From Alphaproteobacteria bacterium UBA830 (GTDB lineage: Bacteria > Pseudomonadota > Alphaproteobacteria > MPNO01 > UBA830), in the NCBI GenBank assembly GCA_905181725.1, contig CAJIYX010000005.1:13655-77654 (forward strand): 64,000 bases of DNA, given 5' to 3'. Under the pieces are notes generated by a model. It was given only the letters and a program-made list of their open reading frames with translations. It made no database searches and was not told the origin of the DNA. Each line of letters opens with the position of its first letter. Within the stretch, counting starts at the first letter, position 1. The position numbers and the translations under genes are program-made. This document shows, piece by piece, positions 29,442 to 31,597 of the stretch.

Positions 29442-31597
29442 ATGAATGGAAGCGATAACGACTCGCCGGTAAATGCCCGGTAATGCACGGGGGAAATACC
29501 ACCACCGATTTGTCGGTGATGGCATGGTGGCCCAAGGCCCTGAACCTCGACATCCTTCATCAGCATGATTCCAAGACCAACCCCATGGACGCCGGATTCG
29601 ACTATCGCGCAGAAGTCAAAACGCTCGACGTGGACGCCTTGAAGAAGGATCTCCACGCCCTCATGACCGACAGCCAGGACTGGTGGCCGGCGGATTTGGG
29701 TCATTATGGCGGCCTGATGATCCGCATGACGTGGCACGCGGCGGGCACCTACCGGACCTCCGATGGCCGCGGTGGCGCAGGCACGGGCAACCAGCGTTTC
29801 GCGCCCCTGAATTCATGGCCCGACAACGTCAACCTCGACAAGGCGCGTCGCCTGCTATGGCCGATCAAAAAGAAATACGGCAACAAGATCAGCTGGGCCG
29901 ATCTCATCGCCTATGCGGGCGCCATCGCCTATGAATCGATGGGTCTGAAGACGTTCGGGTTCGCGTTCGGCCGCGAAGATATCTGGGCCCCCGAACAGGA
30001 CGTCTACTGGGGTTCCGAAACCAAATGGCTGGACCGCGATCGTTACGACAGCGACGACGATGCGGAATCCCTCGAAAACCCGCTGGCCGCCGTGCAGATG
30101 GGTCTGATCTATGTGAACCCGGAAGGCGTGAACGGCCAGCCGGATCCGCTCAAGACCGCGCATGACGTTAGTGAAACCTTCGCGCGCATGGCAATGGACG
30201 ACGCGGAAACCGTCGCCCTGACCGCCGGTGGGCACACCGTCGGCAAGGCCCACGGTAATGGCGATGCGGACTTGCTGGAGGCCGCACCGGAAGGTGCCGG
30301 TATCGACGAGCAGGGCCTCGGCTGGAATAATACCGCCCCGCGCGGCATTGGCCGCGACACCATGTCCAGCGGCATTGAAGGCGCGTGGACAACCAACCCC
30401 ACCCGGTTCGATAAAGGCTATTTAGATCTCCTGTTCCGGTATGAATGGGAACTGAAGAAAAGCCCGGCCGGTGCGTGGCAGTGGATGCCCATCGACATCG
30501 CGGAAGAGGACATGCCGGCCGACGTTGAAGACCCGTCGATCAAATGCATGCCCATCATGACTGATGCCGACATGGCGATAAAAATGGACCCGGCATACCG
30601 TGAAATCTCCGACCGGTTCAGGGACGACCAGGCCGCCTTCGAGGATGCTTTCGCCCGCGCATGGTTCAAGCTGACCCACCGCGACATGGGCCCGAAGGTG
30701 CGCTTCATCGGTCCCGACGTGCCGACCGAAGAGCAGATCTGGATGGATCCGGTCCCCGCAGGCGCGATCGGCTACGACGTTGACGGCGTGAAGGCCAAGA
30801 TCGTGGATGCCGGCCTGGATATCGGCGACATGGTTGCCACCGCCTGGGATAGTGCCAGGACCTTTCGGGGATCGGACATGCGCGGTGGCGCCAATGGTGC
30901 ACGTATCCGCCTCGCCCCCCAGAAAGACTGGGAAGGCAATGAGCCGGCGCGTCTTGGCGCGGTGCTGTCGGTGTTCGAATCCATCGCCGCCGAGTCAGGT
31001 GCGAGCGTGGCCGAAGTGATCGTTCTGGCTGGTAATGTCGGGGTTGAACAGGCGGCGAGGGCTGCGGGCTTTGATGTGACCGTGCCGTTCTCGCCCGGTC
31101 GCGGCCATGCGACGGATGCGGCGACCGACGCCGAGTCCTTCGCGCCGCTGGAACCTGTCCATGACGGGTACCGCAACTGGCTCAAGCAGGATTATGCCGT
31201 CAGCCCGGAAGAGCTGATGCTCGACCTCACGCAGCTGATGGGCCTGACCGCGCATGAGATGACGGTGCTCGTCGGCGGCATGCGCGTCCTCGGCACCAAT
31301 CACGGCGGTACTGGCCACGGTGTGTTCACGGATCGCGAAGGGGCGCTGACGACCGACTTCTTCGTGAACCTGACGGATATGAACAATGTCTGGAAGCCGA
31401 CACGGAAGAATTTTTACGAGATCCGCGATCGTAAGACCGACACGGTCAAATGGACGGCTCGGTCGGTCGATCTCGTCTTCGGCTCCAACTCGGTCCTCCG
31501 CGCCTATGCGGAAGTCTATGCGCAGGAGAAGTTTGTGAGCGATTTCGTGGCGGTCTAGACAAAAGTGATGAACGGGGACCGGTTCGACCTGGTCTGA
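29442..31597 (+). pseudogene. katG: catalase-peroxidase KatG with N-terminal frameshift and premature TAG at a conserved Trp
   Basis: The main ORF is 29483-31558 (691 aa; haem motifs [22 protein letters not shown]). An ATG at 29442 with a GGGAGAG RBS is out of frame, and the conserved [11 protein letters not shown] is encoded partly upstream of the first in-frame ATG. At the 3' end the sequence reads ...[13 protein letters not shown](31556-58)-TKVMNGDRFDLV-TGA(31595-97), whereas the canonical KatG end is FVAAWxKVMNLDRFDL. Confidence 0.85.

Follow-up and report, generated by a model that had tools for sequence, protein, structure and literature searches.

A probable katG pseudogene in an uncultured alphaproteobacterium: a frameshift shared across the species and a TAG allele at the conserved C-terminal tryptophan

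Results

The katG locus

The window (i.e., the whole 64,000-nucleotide stretch of DNA analysed here) comes from an uncultured, probably marine, alphaproteobacterium and carries, on its forward strand, a katG-derived sequence whose features are collected in Table 1. The frame encoding KatG runs without interruption for 691 codons (29483-31555), is closed by a TAG, and continues past this codon through 12 more KatG codons to a TGA. When the TAG is read through, the product matches PDB entry 3wnu (E=0, 1229 bits) over residues 3-711, so that both domains are spanned, and PF00141 is listed for a protein identical to the 691-aa product. The distal Arg-Trp-His (RMxWH), the proximal His (GGHT.GK) and the Met-Tyr-Trp adduct residues are all found in the translation, at positions that we take to be those of the active site from the 3wnu alignment and from general knowledge of the family. 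The frame from the KatG start to the ...W.KVMN.DRFD tail is broken in two places--by a frameshift after codon 7 and by the TAG, which occupies the codon of an invariant Trp. Judged from its sequence, the locus is best described as a KatG-derived pseudogene and not as a functional member of the family, and should be annotated as a katG pseudogene.

Table 1. Features of the katG locus (positions are those of the window).
Feature	Position	Strand	Remark
Shine-Dalgarno sequence GGGAGAG of the ancestral katG start	29430..29436	+	kept in same-genus relatives
What is left of the ancestral N-terminus, an ORF of 13 codons ending at TAA 29481-83	29442..29483	+	first 7 codons are the relatives' MNGSDND
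Frameshift site (1 nt deleted, TCC to TC)	29464..29465	+	sister lineage L017/L018 GACTCCGCC; same-species copies GACTCGCC; also L125, L127
katG open frame, Met15 to the premature TAG, 691 codons	29483..31558	+	ATG overlaps the upstream TAA (TAATG)
TTG (Leu) for TGG (Trp) of WWPADW, W72L	29696..29698	+	other strains and relatives have TGG
Junction of the 12-nt in-frame deletion, GCGCAG direct repeats; DDxx lost before the last helix	31519..31526	+	species-specific
Premature TAG in the invariant C-terminal Trp codon (corresponding to M. tuberculosis W728)	31556..31558	+	alignment, assemblies
Orphaned last 12 KatG codons (TKVMNGDRFDLV) and original TGA stop	31559..31597	+	sequence, conservation
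Terminator-like hairpin and T-run 3' of the original stop	31644..31685	+	sequence

Just 5' of the katG ribosome-binding site is an operator-like palindrome (window 29390-29425; about 1430-1460 in L002), which in the relative G006 is perfect (TTAGAAT-A-GTTCTAA) and resembles a 7-1-7 box of the PerR/Fur type. In the same species it reads TTTGAATTGTTCTAAA, a C for T at 29407 being found only in the window. By its sequence and placement, this palindrome may be a candidate peroxide-stress operator of katG. At the other end of the gene, katG and an isochorismatase gene are separated in the sister lineage by a gene for a luciferase-like monooxygenase of 348 aa (L017 3834-4880, L018 3663-4709); the species of the window has lost it, about 100 bp (31598-31697) being left in its place.

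Copies compared

At the DNA level, the window was compared with eleven further same-species copies from ENA, JGI and Logan sample accessions, so that each lesion could be judged across assemblies. A protein search additionally returned both a product identical to that of 691 aa and 704-aa proteins of 98-99% identity, which have the same MHGG start together with the Trp and the 12-residue tail. The sister lineage represented by L017 and L018 encodes an intact 722-aa KatG of 94% amino acid identity, with neighbouring genes at about 92-96% nucleotide identity, and the katG genes of G006, G029, G022 and G026 are likewise without stops. The comparison supports the view that both interruptions in the window are derived and that the gene was once intact.

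A frameshift near the start

The ATG at 29442, which follows the Shine-Dalgarno sequence, opens the same N-terminus as in the relatives of the same genus--where MNGSD(N/S)..GKCPVMHGG is read from the same ATG--and lies one base off the KatG frame. An earlier note on this DNA, made from the sequence alone, had already described the start of katG as frameshifted and had guessed at an insertion or deletion of one nucleotide near 29462-29470; both the frameshift and its location are borne out by alignment with the sister lineage, in which GACTCCGCC corresponds to GACT-CGCC here, a single C having been lost at 29464/65. The deletion occurs in all of the same-species assemblies that cover the site (11/11), which have differing ENA, JGI and Logan sample accessions. 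Neither the sister lineage (L017 and L018) nor the congeners G006 and G004 have this deletion or a 12-nt deletion near the 3' end of the gene (see below). Across these assemblies, the frameshift is fixed in the species.

The shifted frame is short: its 13-codon ORF stops at TAA 29481-83, which overlaps by one base the ATG at 29483-85 of the KatG frame (TAATG), and directly before this ATG there is no Shine-Dalgarno sequence. Going by this arrangement, the frameshift need not have killed katG, inasmuch as TAATG could restart translation at Met15. The 14 N-terminal residues that would be lost precede the region that is aligned to most structures (M. tuberculosis KatG included), and KatGs that have short N-termini and that are devoid of the GKCPV motif exist naturally (P0101 and P0117). 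A restart at TAATG would be a small, testable example of how a frameshift close to the start of a gene can be survivable. Two related ideas were discarded: TAATG as a compensatory change is ruled out, the intact sister lineage having GTAATG too, and so is programmed -1 frameshifting, because from the KatG-frame TAA at 29456-58 to position 29482 there is no slippery heptamer of the form X XXY YYZ.

As a separate observation, six KatG clusters of 85-86% identity (P0060, P0064, P0065, P0068, P0069 and P0073), all of 674 aa, start with MDPGFDY, that is, about 48 residues short, and come from contigs of up to 110 kb. From the form of these proteins, another lineage of the genus may carry a katG that is disrupted at its 5' end.

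A premature TAG at the C-terminal tryptophan

The premature TAG aligns with the Trp of ...DFVAAW-TKVMNADRFDL in the KatGs of known structure (3wnu). That position is occupied by Trp in 89 of 89 diverse KatGs, and the tail following it (K-V-M-N-x-D-R-F-D) is almost invariant; one G-to-A transition suffices to turn TGG into TAG. This confirms what had been read from the sequence beforehand, namely that TAG stands in place of the conserved C-terminal Trp and that the 12 codons past it (TKVMNGDRFDLV, then TGA) are still those of KatG.

For the same-species assemblies with DNA in hand, TAG is present in 4 of 12 (the window, L016, L125 and L126) and TGG in the other eight; L016, L125 and L126 each show 2-10 further differences from the window, and hence are non-identical haplotypes. 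Proteins ending in ...FVAV are also seen in P0130, P0129, P0134 and P0135. The earlier note had reasoned that relatives sharing the TAG would point to something biological, and three other assemblies with different haplotypes do share it. Moreover, the haplotype of the window is also found with TGG (P0124, P0128 and P0131), so that its six non-synonymous substitutions, given below, predate the TAG. On this distribution, the TAG is a segregating allele, younger than the fixed frameshift. The in-frame stops had been put down to recent changes or errors in once-intact genes; the part concerning errors falls, since the lesions recur across assemblies, and the part concerning recent changes stands for the TAG, a younger polymorphism, the frameshift being older and fixed in the species.

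In a structure alignment, Trp700 of the query corresponds to chain residue 728, the W728 of M. tuberculosis KatG, and query residue 711 to chain residue 739. In M. tuberculosis, isoniazid resistance based on katG amounts to a loss of KatG activity. The W728stop allele of M. tuberculosis katG, which was found in a spontaneous isoniazid-resistant mutant (PMC5974470) and, along with W728R, in resistant clinical isolates (PMC10204763), parallels that of the window in affecting the homologous invariant Trp, 12 residues from the C-terminus, through a single-step change from TGG to a stop, and there KatG function is lost in an otherwise full-length protein. Because W728stop abolishes the activation of isoniazid by KatG and confers resistance, loss of the last 13 residues inactivates a KatG homologue; by analogy, the KatG product of the window is expected to be inactive and this copy would be dead whether or not the frameshift was lethal. 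The two cases differ in that the M. tuberculosis allele is drug-selected, whereas that of the window segregates, with no drug involved, alongside several other lesions in a wild aquatic population.

Further lesions and substitutions

Near the 3' end, 12 nt have been deleted in frame between GCGCAG direct repeats (at about 31519/20), and with them four residues (DDxx) that are present in 69 of the 69 other KatGs whose alignment spans the site; every same-species copy covering it (11/11) has the deletion. Over 250 columns at least 97% conserved, the copy in the window deviates at seven, not counting the stop, as compared with a median of 1 and a 95th percentile of 4 for 87 reference KatGs over the same columns. 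The haplotype of the window has six specific non-synonymous changes (W72L, T147A, R230S, M366I, E377D and D542H), of which R230S and D542H, together with the window-specific D511E, fall within these 250 columns.

Other strains are interrupted elsewhere. L024 has TAG for AAG at codon 55 (K55); L125 and L126 lack 4 nt at 30410, and L127 lacks 14 nt at 30041; in L126 and L127, an insertion at 30915 has extended C6 to C7, as it has, judging from proteins, in P0123, P0125 and P0135. It should be noted that metagenome contigs represent population consensuses and that lesions found together on a single contig may be a chimeric combination. The frame is still open over 2.1 kb in six of the 12 DNA-verified copies. 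In L021 and L023, there is also a 6-nt in-frame duplication between 29776 and 29777, which converts the conserved DGRGGAG loop to GRGRGGAG.

Selection on katG

Within the shallow clade, katG has 31 non-synonymous and 25 synonymous polymorphisms, with 2 nonsense changes in addition (pN/pS 0.37), as against 4 non-synonymous, 20 synonymous and 0 nonsense changes (pN/pS 0.06) for three flanking genes on the same contigs (Fisher p = 0.0015); between species, omega for katG is 0.11. These comparisons point clearly to relaxed selection on katG. Nonetheless, its pN/pS of 0.37 is below neutral (p = 0.0003), and therefore katG is not evolving as fully dead sequence species-wide; part of this sub-neutral signal may come from legacy or from recombination. 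Strains bearing none of the further lesions have 11 non-synonymous and 14 synonymous changes, a pN/pS of 0.23 that is also below neutral (p = 0.0004).

One copy departs from the rest: katG of L023 (ENA ERZ27316482) differs from those of other strains by a dS of 0.09, whereas dS for the adjacent FMO gene is about 0.014-0.021. Its codons from about 250 to 611 combine ancestral states with changes of their own, and its 5' and 3' ends and flanks are species-typical; the L023 katG is probably a recombination mosaic. For this reason, an omega of about 0.22 for L023 versus the rest was not taken to prove that purifying selection had continued past the frameshift.

Discussion

Are the lesions real, and is TAG a stop?

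The genome is a fragmented, metagenome-assembled one (177 contigs, 87% complete), which is a reason for considering that consensus errors account for both the TAG and the missing base and that the real gene is intact. Such an artefact is extremely improbable, because both lesions recur in same-species assemblies with different samples and haplotypes: the same deletion was seen in each of the 11 that cover the site and the same TAG in three others, from different samples and assemblers and in non-identical haplotypes. In addition, the deletion falls in a CC dinucleotide and in no long homopolymer, and a single-base substitution is atypical as an assembly error. Nor is there much room for the idea that TAG is decoded as an amino acid--through amber suppression, pyrrolysine or a reassigned codon--and that katG is therefore complete, even though three independent nonsense events affect Trp codons (katG, C58:41618 and C20:49442). 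TAG terminates 316 of 1132 long ORFs (28%); prfA, encoding RF1, is intact (500 bits); and neither tRNA-CUA nor tRNA-Pyl was found by aragorn among the 29 tRNAs of the 87% complete genome. Over 63,000 codons aligned to the congener G006, with in-frame stops counted from best-frame HSPs having conserved flanks, there are 5 TAG, 2 TAA and 1 TGA, so that the other two stop codons occur in frame as well. The five TAGs sit at W, W, E, Q and S positions and, with K55 of L024 included, replace no one residue consistently. Their excess is what codon usage predicts, since the mutational spectrum from the available source codons (CAG, TGG, GAG and TCG) favours TAG: its expected share of single-base nonsense mutations is 51-57% (about 54%). 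At the katG site itself most strains have TGG, and TAG alleles bear further frameshifts. Recoding is thus very hard to credit, and on this genomic evidence TAG appears to be read as a stop and not as an amino acid. For annotation this would mean that the many in-frame TAGs of the genome are real nonsense mutations, reflecting neither a changed code nor poor assembly, their bias toward TAG following from a usage of codons that end in G.

How and when katG was lost

Very probably, then, the window holds a genuine katG pseudogene of one strain within a species whose population as a whole is losing its catalase-peroxidase. The course of events can be proposed as follows. The ancestor of the species lost one C after codon 7, and 12 nt near the 3' end would have gone through repeat slippage; both deletions are now fixed. 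It is likely that the frameshift was tolerated: from the old, strong ribosome-binding site, ribosomes would reach the TAA, terminate there and restart at Met15, yielding a KatG minus 14 N-terminal residues. Under relaxed selection, strains then independently gained different inactivating lesions. In the lineage of the window, the invariant Trp codon became TAG through a G-to-A change, on a haplotype that, as its TGG-bearing counterparts indicate, already had six non-synonymous changes; by homology, this would remove the last 13 residues, which form a nearly invariant helix. The strain would then depend on peroxiredoxins and on the removal of H2O2 by its neighbours.

A different timing has to be weighed, under which katG was inactivated first of all by the 5' frameshift, so that it has been dead species-wide since the common ancestor, the later lesions (the TAG among them) are neutral and no shortened KatG is made. 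The number of lesions speaks for this: there are at least five further independent ones, some of them on the same contig (three in the L126 consensus), and the 2 nonsense changes among about 58 substitutions come near the neutral expectation. Also in its favour are the species-specific loss of four residues that are retained in every other KatG compared, fixed substitutions at conserved sites (e.g., F314L), the fact that the TAATG overlap predates the frameshift, being present in the intact sister lineage, and the want of a Shine-Dalgarno sequence directly before the ATG at 29483. Against so early a death of the gene stand the below-neutral pN/pS of strains free of extra lesions and the half of the DNA-verified copies that are still open over 2.1 kb. 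The extra lesions, moreover, are not evenly spread: apart from the change of K55 to TAG in L024, they are concentrated in the L72 haplogroup. Finally, what the frameshift removes corresponds to a part of M. tuberculosis KatG that precedes the aligned region, and the naturally short KatGs mentioned above do without the GKCPV motif. Death of the gene at the frameshift is accordingly a serious possibility, though one that falls short of even chances; a frameshift that was tolerated, followed by a relaxation of selection, is modestly favoured over a lethal one.

Relation to known systems

As a kind of feature, the locus is well known: it is ordinary gene loss in progress. Like the ordinary pseudogenes of flexible genomes, which are strain-specific and short-lived and combine nonsense changes with frameshifts, it shows single-nucleotide lesions, a raised pN/pS, multiple independent events and an intact copy in close relatives; compared with ordinary bacterial pseudogenes, its sole peculiarity is the possible restart at TAATG after the frameshift. 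This restart has its own counterpart in termination-reinitiation at overlapping stop and start codons (UAAUG or AUGA), as in many operon genes, with which it shares a one-base overlap and a strong ribosome-binding site on the upstream ORF only; it differs from coupling of the operon type in that the overlap arose accidentally, from a frameshift inside one gene, and in that its use is putative.

KatG matches in the genome (87% complete, 177 contigs) are confined to this one locus, and in the same 87% complete genome neither monofunctional catalase (PF00199) nor Mn catalase (PF05067) was matched; there are ten matches of the AhpC/TSA type. Related genomes have katG patchily, and its presence in just 13 of the 31 implies that it is dispensable. 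The Black Queen hypothesis, according to which leaky removal of H2O2 is adaptively lost by marine bacteria, has katG as its founding example (Morris, Lenski and Zinser 2012, PMC3315703). The loss of katG by Prochlorococcus and Pelagibacter described there involves, as here, the same gene with its leaky function, a patchy distribution among relatives and a cell left without catalase; it differs in that their gene is wholly absent through an ancient loss, whereas the species of the window has a decaying remnant whose open and broken alleles coexist. With several loss alleles found beside open ones, and with an intact sister lineage, the data fit the Black Queen picture. A more specific proposal, which we put forward tentatively and consider somewhat unlikely, is that a Black Queen transition has been caught mid-way within one species: the frameshift would be bypassed at UAAUG, TGG strains with a working, shortened KatG would act as helpers, strains with one of at least five dead alleles of independent origin would be the beneficiaries in the same waters, and the sister lineage, whose neighbouring genes are at roughly 95% nucleotide identity, would have stayed intact. 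Candidate dead alleles are W692*, K55*, the deletions of 4 and 14 nt and the +C insertion.

Published Black Queen cases involving katG are mostly ones of presence or absence. A katG remnant that is still readable, with several independent knock-outs beside open alleles, constitutes a natural allele series, which is suited to testing whether catalase loss in the water column is neutral or favoured.

Other interrupted genes

Outside the window, the same genome (G000) has two more TGG-to-TAG nonsense changes at conserved Trp positions (C58:41618 and C20:49442), and also a gene with two TAGs and a frameshift (C58:49323-50728). Within the window, on the minus strand, a P460-like gene reads ...NTHD-TAG-CAG-TAA-TL... 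at 13853-13861, i.e., two kinds of stop two codons apart, and the gene for an OmpR-type response regulator (14634-15359, minus strand) has a TAG at 15030-32 within its receiver motif (LGLD*GANDYVTKPF). On the plus strand, a secreted or PEP-CTERM-like ORF (47178-48014) runs through a TAG at 47637 into a fragment of the C-terminal dimerisation domain of a pyridine-nucleotide disulfide oxidoreductase; its composition suggests two genes that have fused or left a remnant.
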